IMG/VR virus record: IMGVR_UViG_3300012036_000005
Coordinates: 36,553 to 100,552 of that record
Reading direction: 5' to 3' (one strand)
DNA: 64,000 nt
Origin: a virus
A model generated the notes under the pieces. That model was not told the origin of the DNA. It was given only the letters and a program-made list of their open reading frames with translations, and did not search any database. The first letter of the stretch is position 1, and every line of letters starts with the position of its first letter. A program made the position numbers and the translations under genes. Below are positions 29,140 to 60,926 of the stretch, piece by piece.

Positions 29140-30354
29140 ATGGCAGAGTTTGAAGTAAAAATCGTTCAGGTCGATAAGGTAATCGAGCATCCAAATGCAG
29201 ATCGTCTTACTATTGTAAAAATTGGTGGATACAACTGTATCGCCAACAAGAAAGAAGATGGATCCTGGCGTTATCAATCTGGTGATTTAGTAGTTTATAT
29301 TCCAGAAGGTGCTCTACTACAAGAATGGCTTTTGCGTCATCTTAATATGTGGAATGAAGAGAAGAATAAAGGGTACCTTGCTGGTTCAGCTGGCAATCGA
29401 GTTAAGGCAATAAATCTTAGAGGAGTAGTTAGCCAAGGTGTACTACTTCCTGTAACGATAGAAGACGCCTTTCTTGTAGATGGTAAATCTTGGTATATTT
29501 CGGATGTTCAAACTGAAGCTGAGCGTATGGCGATAGCAGAAGGTAATACTATTGACAAGGTAAAAACTAAAACATTAGGAATTGATGTTTCTGATATATT
29601 AGGCATTATTAAGTATGAACCGGTTATACCCTCAAGTATGAATGGTGAAGTAGAAAATGGCACAGGGATGACTTTGTCATACGATATTGAAAATATGCAG
29701 AAATATCCAACTGTGATTAAAGAGGGCGAAGAAGTTGTTATAACCGAACAATTGCACGGCACTTGGGCGTGTTATGGATTGTGGCCAACTGACAATTCTT
29801 TCAAACATATTATTACATCTAAAGGACTCTCTTCTAAAGGTTTAATTTTTAAACTAACCGAAGAAAATCTAATAAAGAATGTTTATTTTCGTGCACATTC
29901 GGGTACAATTGACCTAAATGACGAATACCTTACTCAAAGGTTGATGTCATGGATGAAAAATACTAATATAACCGAACCGGTTTATTTGCTTGGCGAAGTG
30001 TATGGTAAAGGAATACAAGATTTGTCATACAGCACCGAACGTCCTTTGTTTCGTTTGTTTGACATCTATATTGGAGAACCAGGAAAGGGTAGATATGTAA
30101 ACTACGACGACATGGTTACAATAGCAAATTTGATATCTGTTGATACCGTACCATTATTGTACCGTGGACTCTTTTCAGAAGATGTTGCCAAAGAACACCG
30201 TGACGGAAAAACTGTTCTTGGTGGAAAAAATATAAGAGAAGGTGTAGTAATTACACCAATAAAAGAACGAAGAGATACTATGCTCGGAAGGGTCAAATTG
30301 AAACTAGTATCACCGGATTATCTATTGCGCAAGAATGCAACAGAATACAACTAA
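29140..30354 (+). CDS. RNA ligase, Rnl2/DRB0094 family with N-terminal OB domain (motif I Lys replaced by Gln)
   Basis: HPNADRL, LRGVVSQG, TEQLHGT, GEVYGKGIQ, FDI, REGVVI, K.VS.DYL. Confidence 0.88.
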   Translation: MAEFEVKIVQVDKVIEHPNADRLTIVKIGGYNCIANKKEDGSWRYQSGDLVVYIPEGALLQEWLLRHLNMWNEEKNKGYLAGSAGNRVKAINLRGVVSQGVLLPVTIEDAFLVDGKSWYISDVQTEAERMAIAEGNTIDKVKTKTLGIDVSDILGIIKYEPVIPSSMNGEVENGTGMTLSYDIENMQKYPTVIKEGEEVVITEQLHGTWACYGLWPTDNSFKHIITSKGLSSKGLIFKLTEENLIKNVYFRAHSGTIDLNDEYLTQRLMSWMKNTNITEPVYLLGEVYGKGIQDLSYSTERPLFRLFDIYIGEPGKGRYVNYDDMVTIANLISVDTVPLLYRGLFSEDVAKEHRDGKTVLGGKNIREGVVITPIKERRDTMLGRVKLKLVSPDYLLRKNATEYN

Positions 30355-36199: not shown

Positions 36200-36579
36200 A
36201 TGAACAACAGTGCAACAGCCGTTAAAAATGGCGTAAGAATACTAAAACAAAGATGATCAAGGCAATGGGAGGAAGCTGTCAATGCTGCGGGTATAACAGT
36301 TGTACTGCCGCGCTTGCCTTTCATCATCTAGATCCAAAAGTAAAAGAATTAGGAATCTCTTACACAAGGGCAAATCCAACTAGTTGGGAGAGAATAATAA
36401 ATGAACTTAGAAAATGTGTATTGGTGTGTCATAACTGTCATAGTGAGATACATGAAGGAATACGGTTACTTCCTAAAACGTATGCTAAATTTAACGAAGA
36501 ATATAATTTTTTCCCTCATGGTTTTAAAATTGTATTAAAGACAATAGACAAGGAAAAAAGTAATGGATCCAAAGAGTGA
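36200..36579 (+). pseudogene. HNH endonuclease, apparently frameshifted near its start
   Basis: CQCCGY...FHH.DP...CVLVCHNCH.EIH; ATG 36200 (GAGG RBS) joins only if the A5 run at about 36224 were A6. Confidence 0.75.
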
Positions 36580-40026: not shown

Positions 40027-40082
40027 ACAAGTTGTGCTGCATATCTTCTTTCCATTGTAATAGAAGGTGTTATAAATAGATG

Positions 40083-40673
40083 ATGCGAATAATTTACATA
40101 CACGGCGCGACTGCATCAGAGAAAAGCTTTGCTTTCATACAACAGTCTATCAAAGCCAAGAAACATACCTTCCTTAATTACGATCATAACATGAGTGCTA
40201 TGACCAATCTAGATTCCTTAATAGAGGAACTAGAAAAAACGGAAGATGACTTATTCATAATCGCACATAGCATGGGCGGATTATATGCGATGCATTTGTT
40301 AGAACGTTTTAAAAAGCGTGTAAAGAAAGTGATATCTTTAGCTACACCTTTTAAAGGAAGTGATGTGCCTGCTGTGATGAAGATGTTGTACCCATCTTAT
40401 GAATTGTTTGATCATATAACTCCATATAGCGAATTCGTCAAACAAACGTACGATATAAAAGTGAAACGTGGATTATGGATACAAGTGGTCACAACAGTTG
40501 GAGATGCTCCTTGGATCAAAGGTGAGAATGACGGTATAGTGACTCGTGCGTCAATGACAGCAAGAGATGATATGAAGAAGGTTGAAATCGATCGTAACCA
40601 TTACGAAATAGTGCAAAGCCAAAGAGTTGTGGATCTTATCAAAAAAGAACTAGACAAGTTTAAACTACTATAG
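40083..40673 (+). CDS. Alpha/beta hydrolase
   Basis: IHGA oxyanion, AHSMGG nucleophile elbow, NDGIV, NHYE. Confidence 0.9.
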   Translation: MRIIYIHGATASEKSFAFIQQSIKAKKHTFLNYDHNMSAMTNLDSLIEELEKTEDDLFIIAHSMGGLYAMHLLERFKKRVKKVISLATPFKGSDVPAVMKMLYPSYELFDHITPYSEFVKQTYDIKVKRGLWIQVVTTVGDAPWIKGENDGIVTRASMTARDDMKKVEIDRNHYEIVQSQRVVDLIKKELDKFKLL

Positions 40674-40944
40674 TATAGTTAAATCTTATCCTACGGAAGG
40701 TAACCATGGACCAGAATGTAATTAAAATTCTTGAACAAAGAATTAACGAACTTAAGAAAGTAGCCACTCCTGATAATATAGAACAAGGTATGTCTGGATC
40801 ATTTCTATGGTTCCAGATGTATCTAGAAACAGCTAAATGTATGTCAGAAGAAGAGTTTTATGACGAAGTCTACGATGATTGGCTTCGAGAAAAACACGAT
40901 AAACTTTTAGAGTATGTTCATCGAACAGAATAACCCAATTTTGT

Positions 40945-41014
40945 CGTTGACAAAATGTATAGGAAGTGTTATAAATATACTTGCAACGTTGAAGCAAACT
41001 CAACGTTAGACAGG
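40945..41014 (+). repeat. 70-bp direct repeat of the tmRNA promoter/5' segment (second copy 41416-41485)
   Basis: Identical except for one T/C position. Confidence 0.95.
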
Positions 41015-41060
41015 GCACCGGGAGTTCGAATCTTGGTCTTTATATTAAGATAGAGAATAA

Positions 41061-41201
41061 ATTACATGGAAAGTTGGCCTAAAAGCAGCCATCTTATAAT
41101 GAGTAGACTGTTGTTGAGGTTTTAACCAAAAAACAGAACCGGCATTTTGAAACGACGATATGCCGGTAGGGGTCTTTTAGCGTATCAGCACACCGTGTAA
41201 T
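41061..41201 (+). ncRNA. Small RNA resembling the 23S rRNA L11-binding domain (H43-H44) with an inserted subdomain
   Basis: GTTGGCCTAAAAGCAGCCATC...AGCGTATCAGCACAC enclosed by 9-bp ATTACATGG/CCGTGTAAT stem. Confidence 0.75.
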
Positions 41202-41451
41202 ATCTAGGAGTTTATAAAAAATGAATTATTATAGATACTATTGTAAGAAGACTTTAGAAAAAACTGGTGATATTGACCTTAGTTTTAAAAATGGAATAAA
41301 ACTATGTAAACATAAAGAAAGAATGGCAATATTATACAGACTATTTGGTGCGCTCTTATCTTTATCTATAGTTGGAGCAATAATATTAATAACAATAGAA
41401 ATACTCGTTAATAACCGTTGACAAAATGTATAGGAAGTGTTATAAATATAC

Positions 41452-41784
41452 TTGCAACGTTGAAGCAAACTCAACGCTAGACAGGACTCCGGGGCAGTGC
41501 CGGACAGGTCCACCATAAGCACAACGGTCGCATTTAGAGTAATTGTCCGGTTGCGATAAGTTGGGATCACATACCGTTGTGCTTATGACGGGCCTGAAAC
41601 AGGATCGACTGTTAGTCATTAGGTGAGTGGAGTTGTCCGGATCTAAGCTCGGTTAACGCGAAGAACAACTGTAAATGCAGCATCTAATGCAGCAAATGAT
41701 AATTTCGTAATGGACCAAAGCCTAGCGGCTTAATCCTTATGATTTAATCGGGGCTCGGAGGCGCCTGGCAACAGAAGCCTCCAC
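41452..41784 (+). ncRNA. ssrA: Circularly permuted (two-piece) tmRNA, alphaproteobacterial type
   Basis: Acceptor piece ending CAGGTCCACCA (41515), paired intervening segment, coding piece from GGGCCTGAAACAGGATCGAC (41590); tag frame ...ANDNFVMDQSLAA* (41677-41733). Confidence 0.92.
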
Positions 41785-42825
41785 TTATTTCCAAATTTCT
41801 TGTATTGGTACAAACTTCGTACCAGGATACAATTCTTCAATGTTATTCCATGTGTAATTATCTACATCGGCTTTATCCCAAAGGGTTCCGTGTATTTTAC
41901 TTTCCTTACCAATTGAAACATGAGTAAAATCTTTTAAGAGAATTTTAACAAAAGCAGGTTGAAGGTTTTTAATACTTGCAAGATAGAATAATAAATCTTC
42001 ATTATCTTCTTTTACTAAATGATCATACAAATTTTTCTGTAATTGAGCCGAAACATTAACCGATGCTACTTTAACATTTTCTAATTTCTTAATTAATTCA
42101 TTAATTGCTTTATCGGGTGTGAGTTTGTTTGAGATTCCGCGTTTCTGTTTAGTGATGCTGAGTTTCTCTACTACTTTAAAAGAGGCGCTGCTAAAGAAAA
42201 CTGCTTGGGTTGGTTCACTTTCGTGTATAATTCCACCACCGTTATCTACAGCATAAGTATAACCAAGAACTTGAGATAGTATCTTATTCCAAAGCACTGT
42301 TGATTTTCTTGTTCCGTTGTTTAGTGTAATTTTATTACCAGCTAAGATCATGGAAAGTGATCTAGTTACGTTCCACAAACGGGCACCATATGAATCTAAT
42401 TTAGATTCTTCTATTGCTTGTTTCGTTACTATATTGAATAAGTGTTCGCTTATTTTACCAACTATCTTATCATGTAATTTTTTCATGTCAGAATTAAATT
42501 GTGTTTTGGTATATCTATTAAGATCTAATTTAGAATTTTGATCTTTTGCTTCTATTATCCAAGCAAATGGTTGATTGCCTTGATATGGTAATCCTCCAAA
42601 TCCATCTTCGCTTACAATATCATAAGCATATCCAGTTTGATATGTATATACTCCAATCGGGGTATTATATTTGTTTGCTGGATTAAGTCCAATCTTATCA
42701 ATAGCAGTCATACTCATGTAATGATTATTAGAAAACTGATATTGTGCCAAATCTTCAATAGGGCTTGATCTTCTATTCTGTTCTGGATTGCGTCGAAGCT
42801 CACTTATAAGTTCTTGGTATCTCAT
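41785..42825 (-). CDS. Hypothetical protein (paralogue of 45362-46354), possible ADP-ribosyltransferase-like fold
   Basis: Shared KIGLNP...TP.G.YTY, LWNV.R, LGY...D..GIIH..E.TQAVFFS; MRYxE N-terminus. Confidence 0.6.
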   Translation of the reverse strand: MRYQELISELRRNPEQNRRSSPIEDLAQYQFSNNHYMSMTAIDKIGLNPANKYNTPIGVYTYQTGYAYDIVSEDGFGGLPYQGNQPFAWIIEAKDQNSKLDLNRYTKTQFNSDMKKLHDKIVGKISEHLFNIVTKQAIEESKLDSYGARLWNVTRSLSMILAGNKITLNNGTRKSTVLWNKILSQVLGYTYAVDNGGGIIHESEPTQAVFFSSASFKVVEKLSITKQKRGISNKLTPDKAINELIKKLENVKVASVNVSAQLQKNLYDHLVKEDNEDLLFYLASIKNLQPAFVKILLKDFTHVSIGKESKIHGTLWDKADVDNYTWNNIEELYPGTKFVPIQEIWK

Positions 42826-56865: not shown

Positions 56866-56944
56866 GCTCGGTTAGCTCAGATGGTTAGAGCCGGAGTCTC
56901 TAAAACTCAGCGTGTCAGGGGTTCAAGTCCCTTACCGAGCACCA
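56866..56944 (+). tRNA. Amber suppressor tRNA (anticodon CTA)
   Basis: GCTCGGT/ACCGAGC-A-CCA acceptor; GAGT-CT-CTA-AA-ACTC anticodon arm; GTTCAAGTC T-loop. Confidence 0.88.
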
Positions 56945-60070: not shown

Positions 60071-60926
60071 ATGGGCGGTGTAGCGTCCATAAGGGCAGGT
60101 GCAGCAATGCACTTAAAGGTAGGAAGCCTACATACTACCACTAACAGCAATGTTAGCCCAACTATGCAAGCCTGAATTAGATGATGCCGGTAATCATTCC
60201 GTAGCATGTCCCATCCTTAGGAAGGTGGTAAGCTTGAAGATAGTAAGACAGTCCGAAAGGATAACACTGGAGCCAGTCGGTGAGGTGTAATGCGGTTGGC
60301 GCCGCTACTGACTTAGCCAAACTATCGAGAGCCTAATACTAACAGGTAGGACAGAGTCTGATCGTTAGCGCGAAAAGGCGACGTCCATCACAAACGAAGA
60401 AGGGTGAGAAGCCCGGAAACGTGAAGTGAGGCTTAGTACCCCGCAAGGAGAAAAGCAGGTGGTGTGTTGTATTTTGTATCTAACAAGGTACGAAGCAACT
60501 GGGGCAGCACATCGCAGTAGGTTGCAATATAGCCAAACGGTAAAGGCAACGGTTTCTAAGACCGTCGATTACAGGTTCAAATCCTGTTATTGATAAAAGC
60601 AAAGACTGGCCCGGTCGCATGTTAAAGATGCCTAATGCTAAACCTCGGTGAGGAATTTAGCACACCGGAGCTCGCAAGGCAAAGGTGTTTGTTGGAAGTG
60701 AAGACGTAAAGGGTTAGCGCCTTTGAATTGCTCGCAAGGCAAGCGGAAGAACGAACGACGAGTAGCATGTGACGACGAGTGAAAAGCGACACTCTCAAAA
60801 ACGCGGCATTGGTTGATACTAGGGTAGTTGTTTACAACACTTTAGTGGATAAGGAATTAACATGCCTCGCAAGGGCATGGTACGGTTCTACTAAAGGCAA
60901 CCATTAAAACGTGTAATCTCAGCGTT
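60071..60926 (+). ncRNA. Large ornate ncRNA, GOLLD-like
   Basis: About 850 nt GC-rich ORF-free region with many GCAA/GAAA-capped hairpins, in a tRNA cluster, own promoter; family by recall only. Confidence 0.65.
60523..60594 (+). tRNA. tRNA-like domain with CTA anticodon embedded in the large ncRNA
   Basis: D arm TAGCCAAACGGTAAAGGCA, ACGGT-TT-CTA-AG-ACCGT, ACAGG-TTCAAAT-CCTGT; 5-bp acceptor, no CCA. Confidence 0.7.

Follow-up and report, generated by a model that had tools for sequence, protein, structure and literature searches.

Why should a domain of 23S ribosomal RNA (rRNA) stand by itself in a phage genome, and what could it do there? The question is raised by a 141-nt non-coding RNA element at positions 41061-41201 (+ strand) of a 64,000-nt stretch of viral DNA (positions 36,553 to 100,552 of IMG/VR record IMGVR_UViG_3300012036_000005), referred to here as the window. 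This window covers the right-hand end (64 kb) of a 100.5-kb virus contig, and because CheckV rates that contig as 29% complete, its source is a very large phage. An earlier note, made from the sequence alone, had read the element as a selected stand-alone rRNA mimic that contains a structured insert, is closed by a helix of its own and copies the GTPase-associated centre (GAC) to which ribosomal protein uL11 binds, and had placed it in a jumbo phage. The setting fits, given the estimated completeness of the contig and the 350-385 kb of several cultured phages that carry the element. The mimicry itself is strongly supported by covariation, by near-invariant GAC loops together with U1060 and A1088, and by a fixed insertion point: the GAC architecture is under selection across a phage family. 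Judged by its sequences, this family is a new kind of phage RNA, a predicted free-standing mimic of a ribosomal functional centre, and it probably imitates the ribosomal site away from the ribosome.

Likeness of the element to the ribosomal centre

With E. coli 23S numbering (U1060 is window position 41074), the parts of the element, all on the + strand, follow the helix order of the bacterial GAC, which consists of the top of helix 42 (H42), H43 and H44 (E. coli nt 1051-1108, the 58-60-nt fragment that binds uL11 and thiostrepton). Read directly, the sequence contains every stem, insert helix and rRNA-like part that the earlier note had named, each in its place. The closing helix corresponds to the top of H42, its 5' strand ATTACATGG (41061-41069, nt 1047-1055) pairing over 9 bp with its 3' strand CCGTGTAAT (41193-41201, nt 1104-1112). 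The H43 copy follows at 41070-41095 (nt 1056-1081); A1056 faces A1103, and the stem is built from pairs 1057-1059/1079-1081, U1060.U1078 and an upper part 1061-1064/1074-1077. Its loop 1065-1073, with A1067 at 41081, is rRNA-like apart from C1065 and A1068, variants found in 11 and 14, respectively, of the 94 main-type family members described below. The junction strand (41096-41104, nt 1082-1090) holds a mini-hairpin in which the pair A1082-U1086 encloses UAA (41096-41100), followed by G1087 and A1088 (41101-41102) and by GU (41103-41104).

Between the equivalents of nt 1090 and 1091 lies a 71-nt branched insert (41105-41175), whose basal stem AGAC/GTCT (41105-41108/41172-41175) carries two hairpins (41108-41136 and 41138-41167). 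The stems of these hairpins, CTGTT/AACAG (41108-41112/41132-41136) and ACCGGCAT/ATGCCGGT (41138-41145/41160-41167), were both recovered by a single-sequence fold of -43.5 kcal/mol (z -3.7, with none of 200 shuffles equally good). The remaining segment, 41176-41192, begins with UUU and an A at 41179, where most members have G. It continues with the H44 copy (41180-41189; the nt 1091-1103 region extends to 41192), in which G-C and C-G pairs support a hexaloop GUAUCA with A1095 at 41184; the U at position 1096 is rare, occurring in 2 of the 94 members. The equivalents of A1101, C1102 and A1103 occupy 41190-41192.

As the rRNA reference we used the genuine E. coli-type 23S sequence met in one of the loci searched (L116), with which the 23S sequence cited in the earlier note agrees. 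The window element is identical to it at 26 of 32 positions over nt 1057-1088 and at 11 of 14 over nt 1091-1104, in total 37 of 46 (80% over the core), and four of the nine mismatches form two compensatory pairs, 1058/1080 and 1082/1086, both changed from U-A to A-U. The match is not due to chance, since the rRNA 21-mer GTTGGCTTAGAAGCAGCCATC occurs once in the window with 2 mismatches, against an expectation of 0 from 100 shuffles. No further rRNA surrounds the element, as had been claimed: scanning the whole window with Rfam at gathering thresholds returned tRNAs, transfer-messenger RNA (tmRNA) and GOLLD RNA and no large-subunit (LSU) rRNA, and in place of contiguous H41 and H45 sequence the flanks consist of a promoter and leader upstream and a Shine-Dalgarno sequence and open reading frame (ORF) downstream. 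The earlier note had also predicted an LSU-model match restricted to H42-H44, and this prediction failed, as the Rfam LSU model does not match the window member even at E <= 10. It does match the GAC region of the relatives in phages GAP32 and pf16 below threshold, and an LSU rRNA match at GAC positions, likewise below threshold, was the only related one when the four members from cultured phages were compared with Rfam. Rfam 15 contains no such family, and positions 40900-41420 of the window gave only noise at E <= 10.

The determinants of the fold and of uL11 binding, taken from two studies of the GAC (PMC2175356 and PMC6239185), are all present in the window: U1060, A1088, the 1067 stem, G1071/C1072 with G1091-C1100/C1092-G1099, and the 1082-1086 pair. 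uL11 recognises the GAC through backbone contacts on the H43 stem and the U1060-A1088 pair (PMC2175356). Across the family the likeness to the GAC comprises loops 1065-1073 and 1093-1098 including A1067 and A1095, the U1060.U1078 pair, the U1060/A1088 determinant, the 1082-1086 pair closing UAA, G1087-C1102, R1056.A1103 and the nucleotides of both base triples; it even includes a variable position 1061, which varies among natural GACs too (PMC6239185). In contrast to the GAC, the family elements lie outside any rRNA, are phage-encoded at one per genome among tRNA genes, and have H42 closed into a short stem. The base of H44 differs as well. Instead of an uninterrupted strand 1087-1091 with an A1090-U1101 pair, the window has the 71-nt insert and an A opposite A1101, and the same holds family-wide: a helix of 41-365 nt, preceded by an invariant GAGU and followed by UUU, separates the equivalents of 1090 and 1091, and U1101 is replaced by A, so that R.A takes the place of the A1090-U1101 pair.

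A covarying phage family with variable inserts

Searching other phages for homologues and testing them for covariation, as the earlier note had proposed, yielded a large family whose variable helices covary. A 19-nt pattern from the 5' half (TTGGCYTARAAGCAGCCAT), run against IMG/VR contigs, matched at least 118 contigs, with 78 distinct full elements among the matches listed. Six loci were rejected, three being true 23S rRNA with the uninterrupted sequence ...AAAGAAAGCGTAATAGCTCAC (L101, L111 and L116) and three being chance 19-mers within coding sequence (L003, L009 and L027), and some others are cut off by a contig end. Nearly all remaining loci share a common plan: closing stem, GGRANG-UUGGCUUAGAAGCAGCCAUC-NUNUAANGAGU, insert, UUU-R-GCGUARNAGC-ACAC, closing stem. 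An independent scan of 185,579 species genomes with the 3' motif alone (TTTGGCGTARYAGCACAC) gave 69 matches, 36 of which have a 5' half 84-363 nt upstream (on bacterial, metagenome-assembled-genome (MAG) or prophage contigs), while the other 33 or so are attributable to chance, the estimate being about 69 chance matches for 596 Gb. In IMG/VR contigs, MAG and prophage contigs and cultured phages, more than 110 distinct relatives with the same plan were found. The window element fits the 5' half of the family, GG-R-A-N-G-UUGGCUUAGAAGCAGCCAUC-N-U-N-UAA-N-GAGU, at 41068-41104 and the 3' half, UUU-R-GCGUARNAGC-A-C-A-C plus closing strand, at 41176-41201, and it carries between GAGU and UUU the inserted helix with covarying basal pairs (AGAC/GUCU).

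The family is defined by an alignment (A1) and a covariance model (R1) seeded with 24 short-insert members, the window element among them; its score of 96 bits (E 8.6e-32, model positions 1-148) is thus partly circular. Full-length matches to R1 of 55-114 bits were obtained in about 86 of 100 loci, with 72-108 bits for members outside the seed, whereas true rRNA reaches only 45 bits. Scanning with R1 revealed no further copy in the window or contig, where the element is single. A BLAST search of the 521-nt region against named phages found no relatives, reflecting divergence outside the core; because the family is too divergent there, a 36-nt core query was needed. The element was confirmed in fetched genomes of Cronobacter phage GAP32, Xanthomonas phage XacN1, Aeromonas phage 4_4572 and Pseudomonas phage pf16, in unannotated stretches, and BLAST located it also in Pectobacterium phage CBB, Serratia phage BF, Yersinia phage fHe-Yen9-04, several Erwinia pEa_SNUABM phages, and XaC1, XbC2, Milchi, Astolliot and UNO-G1W1. 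In the four confirmed genomes it occupies positions 289512-289761 of JN882285.1 (GAP32), 150355-150592 of AP018399.1 on the minus strand (XacN1), 75078-75367 of MK813943.1 (4_4572) and 29413-29607 of KU873925.1, again on the minus strand (pf16).

A sub-type in which the distance from C1079 to the UAA triloop is shorter by one nucleotide (e.g. CUAUAAUGAGU and CUUUAAUGAGU) is present at loci L023, L029, L037, L043, L085, L103, L106 and L149; it often has GCACGC instead of GCACAC at its 3' end and is excluded from the 94-member counts. Paenibacillus phage Pd_22F (L193; MZ092003.1, about 83,700-84,090) contains a contiguous genuine 23S stretch in an unannotated gap near one end of the record. It was not accepted as a family member and is probably host DNA or an assembly artefact.

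In the alignment of 24 sequences, 93.2% of the cells are paired, compared to 68.8% after shuffling (none of 500 shuffles as high), and double-sided changes occur in 138 cells compared to 43. Sliding the 3' partners by 1-3 columns as a control lowers pairing to 29-52%. Among the 94 main-type members, each variable pair beats 500 shuffles. The closing-helix pairs 1049-1055/1104-1110 pass through all four Watson-Crick types across the family, with 0 of 500 shuffles as good; pair 1057-1081 alternates between A-U and C-G, pair 1058-1080 has four types, and pair 1082-1086 is U-A in 44 members, C-G in 34 and A-U in 10. The basal stem of the insert covaries in its first 3-4 bp, its first three pairs being 95-100% paired with 3-4 types each (again 0 of 500 shuffles as good). 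In the 71 distinct elements ascertained by their 5' half only, the 3' half is near-invariant, and in the 36 elements ascertained by their 3' half the upper part of H43 contains rare compensatory exchanges, A-U replacing G1062-C1076 and either U-A or A-U replacing C1064-G1074. Other parts do not change. G1087-C1102, U1060 and A1088 are invariant in the family alignment, the non-canonical features R1056.A1103, U1060.U1078 and loops 1065-1073 and 1093-1098 are kept, and so are the triple partners G1071/C1072 with G1091-C1100/C1092-G1099; position 1061 is U in 74 members, A in 14 and G in 6. The combination of invariant U1060 and A1088 with a freely covarying lower H43 stem fits backbone recognition by uL11 (PMC2175356).

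The insert always lies between GAGU and UUU and measures 41-365 nt (median 136). About 17 of 64 insert groups, i.e. about a quarter, end in a module ..GGUAAAGU..(R)NCACC-CCN[GNRA or UAAN]NGG-UAAGG.., in which the third pair of the 3-bp hairpin covaries; from its sequence, the module looks like a tetraloop receptor of the 11-nt type. Examples occur at L022, L011, L065, L191 (2715-2760) and L192 (2620-2655). The window insert does not have the shared module and carries two plain hairpins instead. We also considered whether the inserts mimic another part of rRNA, e.g. the sarcin-ricin loop, and rejected this, as short-word BLAST of the 64 insert groups against full 23S rRNA gave scattered noise only and no recurrent similarity. 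About 7% of members have a second structured insert between U1078 and C1079, within the H43 stem gripped by uL11 (L038, L049, L057, L069, L074, L087, L096 and L104).

Genomic setting of the family and of the window element

When the loci were reduced to 100 non-redundant groups, a tRNA or tmRNA gene was found no more than 3 kb from the element in 69 of them, and all 428 such genes are on the strand of the element. A tRNA ends at most 30 nt upstream in 22 groups (mostly 3-12 nt) and starts at most 30 nt downstream in 22; a tmRNA gene is nearby in six. Across the family loci there is no preferred neighbouring tRNA isotype, and all-against-all BLAST of 1687 ORFs within 5 kb revealed no recurrent neighbouring protein, the best cluster covering 4 of 99 locus groups. 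Each of 33 large carriers (15 of them at least 90% complete, plus four complete cultured phages) has one element per genome. From these observations we infer that the members are transcribed together with tRNAs and released as stable RNAs by tRNA-processing enzymes. None of the 33 carriers encodes uL11, nor does the contig of the window; RelA_SpoT is found in none of the 33, and a GTP_EFTU domain in one, a doubtful exception whose record is classed as a provirus. With no uL11 or RelA/SpoT and almost no translational GTPase in the carriers, any partner that recognises the GAC would come from the host or a competitor. This is compatible with the roles suggested in the earlier note, in which the RNA would titrate uL11 and blunt RelA activation or act as a decoy for GAC-directed toxins or methylases.

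The window follows this habit, with 36 tRNA genes (ARAGORN) and a permuted tmRNA gene all on the + strand, as is the element. Peculiar to the window, the nearest upstream tRNA is 1 kb away, and the element instead follows a duplicated block that gives it a promoter of its own. Upstream of the element, at 40947-40976 (+), is a strong sigma-70-type promoter with TTGACA (40947-40952), a 17-nt spacer ending in TGT, and TATAAA(T) (40970-40976), which a simple promoter scan omits as its -10 hexamer ends in A. The earlier note had taken this promoter for a copy of that of the tmRNA gene, and such a copy it is: its exact 30-mer is found nowhere in the window but at 40947 and 41418 (0 expected), the second copy (41418-41447) standing in front of the tmRNA gene. 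The promoter belongs to a duplicated 70-nt block (40945-41014, +) that equals the 5' region of the tmRNA gene at 41416-41485 with one mismatch (columns 21-90 of alignment A3, in which column 82 differs). Besides the promoter, the block supplies the initial ~32 nt of the transcript, where an 8-bp hairpin, AACGTTGA..TCAACGTT, forms in the fold of 40983-41062. Between block and element, a T-arm-like hairpin ACCGGGA-GTTCGAA-TCTTGGT (41017-41037, +; 7 pairs, 3 of them G-C) is followed by a U-rich tail CTTTATATT; it was classified as terminator-like by the scanner, and it also folds. Its position is about that of the upstream tRNA 3' end in other members, and it may be a tRNA- or tmRNA-like remnant serving as a processing site, or a weak terminator that attenuates transcription.

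Downstream, a Shine-Dalgarno sequence AGGAG (41206-41210, +) begins 5 nt past the closing stem and precedes an ORF of 66 amino acids (41221-41421, +; ATG at 41221), which has no Pfam or PHROG match. This ORF may be co-transcribed with the RNA, and its link to the RNA is uncertain; in other members the downstream neighbours are tRNAs or unrelated ORFs. The two-piece permuted tmRNA gene (41414-41824, +), source of the duplicated promoter block, is on the strand of the mimic and starts ~215 nt beyond it. It scores 95 bits with the Rfam alpha_tmRNA model and 73 bits with tmRNA_permuted, and ARAGORN reports it as tmRNA* with the tag AASNAANDNFVMDQSLAA; the best score, against the alphaproteobacterial model, hints at an alphaproteobacterial host. 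The region between the tRNA block and the mimic contains an ORF of 197 amino acids for an alpha/beta-hydrolase (40080-40673, GXSXG esterase/lipase-like). Farther along, a GOLLD RNA lies at 60459-60925 (Rfam 184.7 bits) with an inner tRNA-like unit at 60522-60596 that has a CUA anticodon (ARAGORN 'tRNA-Pyl'), and a second tRNA with a CUA (amber-reading) anticodon lies at 56866-56944.

Possible function, nearest known systems and significance

Taken together, we consider it somewhat more likely than not that the element specifies a small stable phage RNA, a GAC replica acting off the ribosome as a decoy that binds host uL11 and/or a factor or toxin aimed at the GAC. Transcription, on the + strand, would start at the copy of the tmRNA promoter that the element possesses. 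The two RNA ends would fold into a closed GAC replica (top of H42, H43, the 1082-1086 mini-hairpin and H44), with the variable helix spliced in at the H44 side of the junction, and the RNA would accumulate in the manner of a tRNA after processing by tRNA-maturing nucleases. It would then take on the GAC tertiary fold and act away from the ribosome as a decoy of the GAC. It is very likely that the RNA is stable and has a GAC-like fold. Host uL11 would be its most direct partner, because the backbone contacts on the H43 stem and the U1060-A1088 pair are preserved, and binding of uL11 in the cell is slightly more likely than not.

The consequences of such binding can be envisaged in three ways. 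Acting as a sponge, the RNA or its ribonucleoprotein might sequester agents that target the GAC, for which a Tre23-like toxin, a thiopeptide and a modifying enzyme are candidates; a toxin directed at the GAC does exist, as Tre23 ADP-ribosylates H44 at nt 1095-1098 and cripples EF-G (PMC8661411). A toxin or defence decoy of this sort is a possible outcome, though we would not expect it. Alternatively, the RNA might draw uL11 off ribosomes and thereby weaken the activation of RelA. Ribosomes without uL11 fail to activate RelA, and control of the stringent response by this route appears unlikely. The capture of a translational GTPase, finally, seems more doubtful still. As a general proposal, we tentatively suggest that in many large phages a GAC replica captures host uL11 and/or a molecule aimed at the GAC (RelA, a translational GTPase, or a Tre23-type toxin used in defence or by a competitor), and in this way protects or reprograms translation during infection.

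Several points weigh against a decoy that binds uL11. The second insert in the H43 stem of about 7% of members might be incompatible with uL11 binding there. In every member the base of H44 departs from that of rRNA, with R.A for A1090-U1101 and an extra helix, and a sponge would face competition from the tens of thousands of ribosomes in a cell. In the window, a terminator-like hairpin lies between promoter and RNA, and the Shine-Dalgarno sequence and small ORF just downstream may indicate a local cis role.

The last point leads to the alternative of a cis-acting leader, which would bind a ribosomal protein and thereby regulate either the 66-amino-acid ORF (41221-41421) or read-through to the tmRNA gene, as the leaders of ribosomal protein operons do. 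The short distances from the closing stem to the Shine-Dalgarno sequence and the ATG would suit such a leader, and regulation by mRNA leaders that mimic rRNA is well established (PMC10931766). An autoregulatory leader, however, lies in the 5' untranslated region (UTR) of the gene for the protein that it binds, and no uL11 gene is present in the contig or the 33 carriers; the ORF matches no Pfam or PHROG family, and what follows the element is, in 22 of 100 groups, a tRNA no more than 30 nt away and otherwise an unrelated ORF, with no recurring protein family. We regard a leader as quite improbable. The inserts invite another explanation, that the GAC-like module is merely a compact, ion-stabilised scaffold or protective base and that the variable insert binds some other phage or host target, uL11 and factors being irrelevant. 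Their length and structure, the conserved ..CACC-CCN[GNRA]NGG-UAAGG.. module in about a quarter of insert groups and the tolerance of a second H43 insert would be accounted for in this way. Yet the inserts are unconserved across the family and that of the window does not have the shared module, whereas the solvent-exposed GAC loops including A1067 and A1095, as well as U1060 and A1088, are almost invariant; a scaffold would not need to keep the ligand-facing loops of rRNA in at least 100 very different phages, and we judge this explanation unlikely.

The RNA could also act on the ribosome, with or without uL11, for instance by docking through its insert and replacing or shielding a damaged GAC in trans, or by tuning factor recruitment for phage mRNAs. 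Such a role would be in keeping with the very large translation kit of the phage (36 tRNA genes, tmRNA and GOLLD RNA), but the H42 equivalent is a closed stem of 7-9 bp that offers no free strand for pairing with the 50S subunit, and the inserts show no recurrent similarity to other parts of 23S rRNA, so that there is little probability in this reading either. A functionless origin, either from a piece of host 23S rRNA that the phage picked up and that is decaying or from rRNA reads wrongly joined to the contig during assembly, would explain the 80% identity to rRNA over the core, and host rRNA does occur in phage records, as in Paenibacillus phage Pd_22F. Against this stand the absence of flanking rRNA, a closing helix that is the element's own and covaries, abundant compensatory changes, and the same insertion point and U1101-to-A change in more than 110 distinct elements of unrelated phages, with relatives from many samples and from cultured phages. 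The family data already refute this origin, and its probability is negligible. The rival explanations are thus weaker than that of an off-ribosome decoy or already excluded by the family data.

Full-text searches of the literature on the GAC, L11 and rRNA mimicry in connection with phages found no description of such an RNA. The nearest known systems are leaders of ribosomal protein operons, such as the L1 site of the L11-L1 operon and the L10 leader that binds L10(L12)4, in which a non-ribosomal transcript likewise copies the site of a ribosomal protein on rRNA (PMC10931766). These leaders are cis-acting 5' UTRs of cellular ribosomal protein genes and copy a small local motif, whereas the phage element is a free-standing gene that reproduces a whole tertiary domain, is carried by genomes without uL11 and matches no leader family in Rfam. 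We know of no ribosomal protein operon leader that copies the uL11 site. Species 1 and 2 RNAs of phage T4 (rnaC and rnaD) are, by annotation, also short non-coding RNAs with no assigned function beside phage tRNA genes on the same strand; they were rejected as distant members, having no sequence or structure relation to the family (best R1 score in the T4 tRNA region 5.1 bits, E 0.14, with filters off). Decoy RNAs of host machines are known: 6S RNA imitates open promoter DNA, and bacterial and phage Y RNAs contain a tRNA-like domain. The concept is alike, a stable RNA resembling the natural substrate or site of a cellular machine, but the phage element imitates a ribosomal functional centre, has no homology to these RNAs, and its partner is putative.

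The tRNA arrays of phages are now viewed as a means to sustain translation and to evade defences that target tRNAs. If the RNA is a decoy, then defence or competitor toxins aimed at the GAC would be common enough in nature to select for a mimic; if it binds uL11, it would provide a natural route to 'relaxed' ribosomes that do not activate RelA. The cultured carriers on tractable hosts (GAP32, CBB, Serratia phage BF, fHe-Yen9-04, XacN1, pf16 and Aeromonas phage 4_4572) make these ideas directly testable. The family is also a natural experiment on which parts of the GAC are indispensable, a question on which its fixed points of insertion, the R.A exchange in basal H44 and the free covariation of lower H43 all bear. 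If the proposed function holds true, the RNA would be the first decoy of a ribosomal functional site from a virus, encoded beside the tRNA genes within a kit for translation and counter-defence, and a conserved stand-alone copy of the uL11/GTPase centre within tRNA arrays points to a further, unrecognised layer of conflict over the ribosome.

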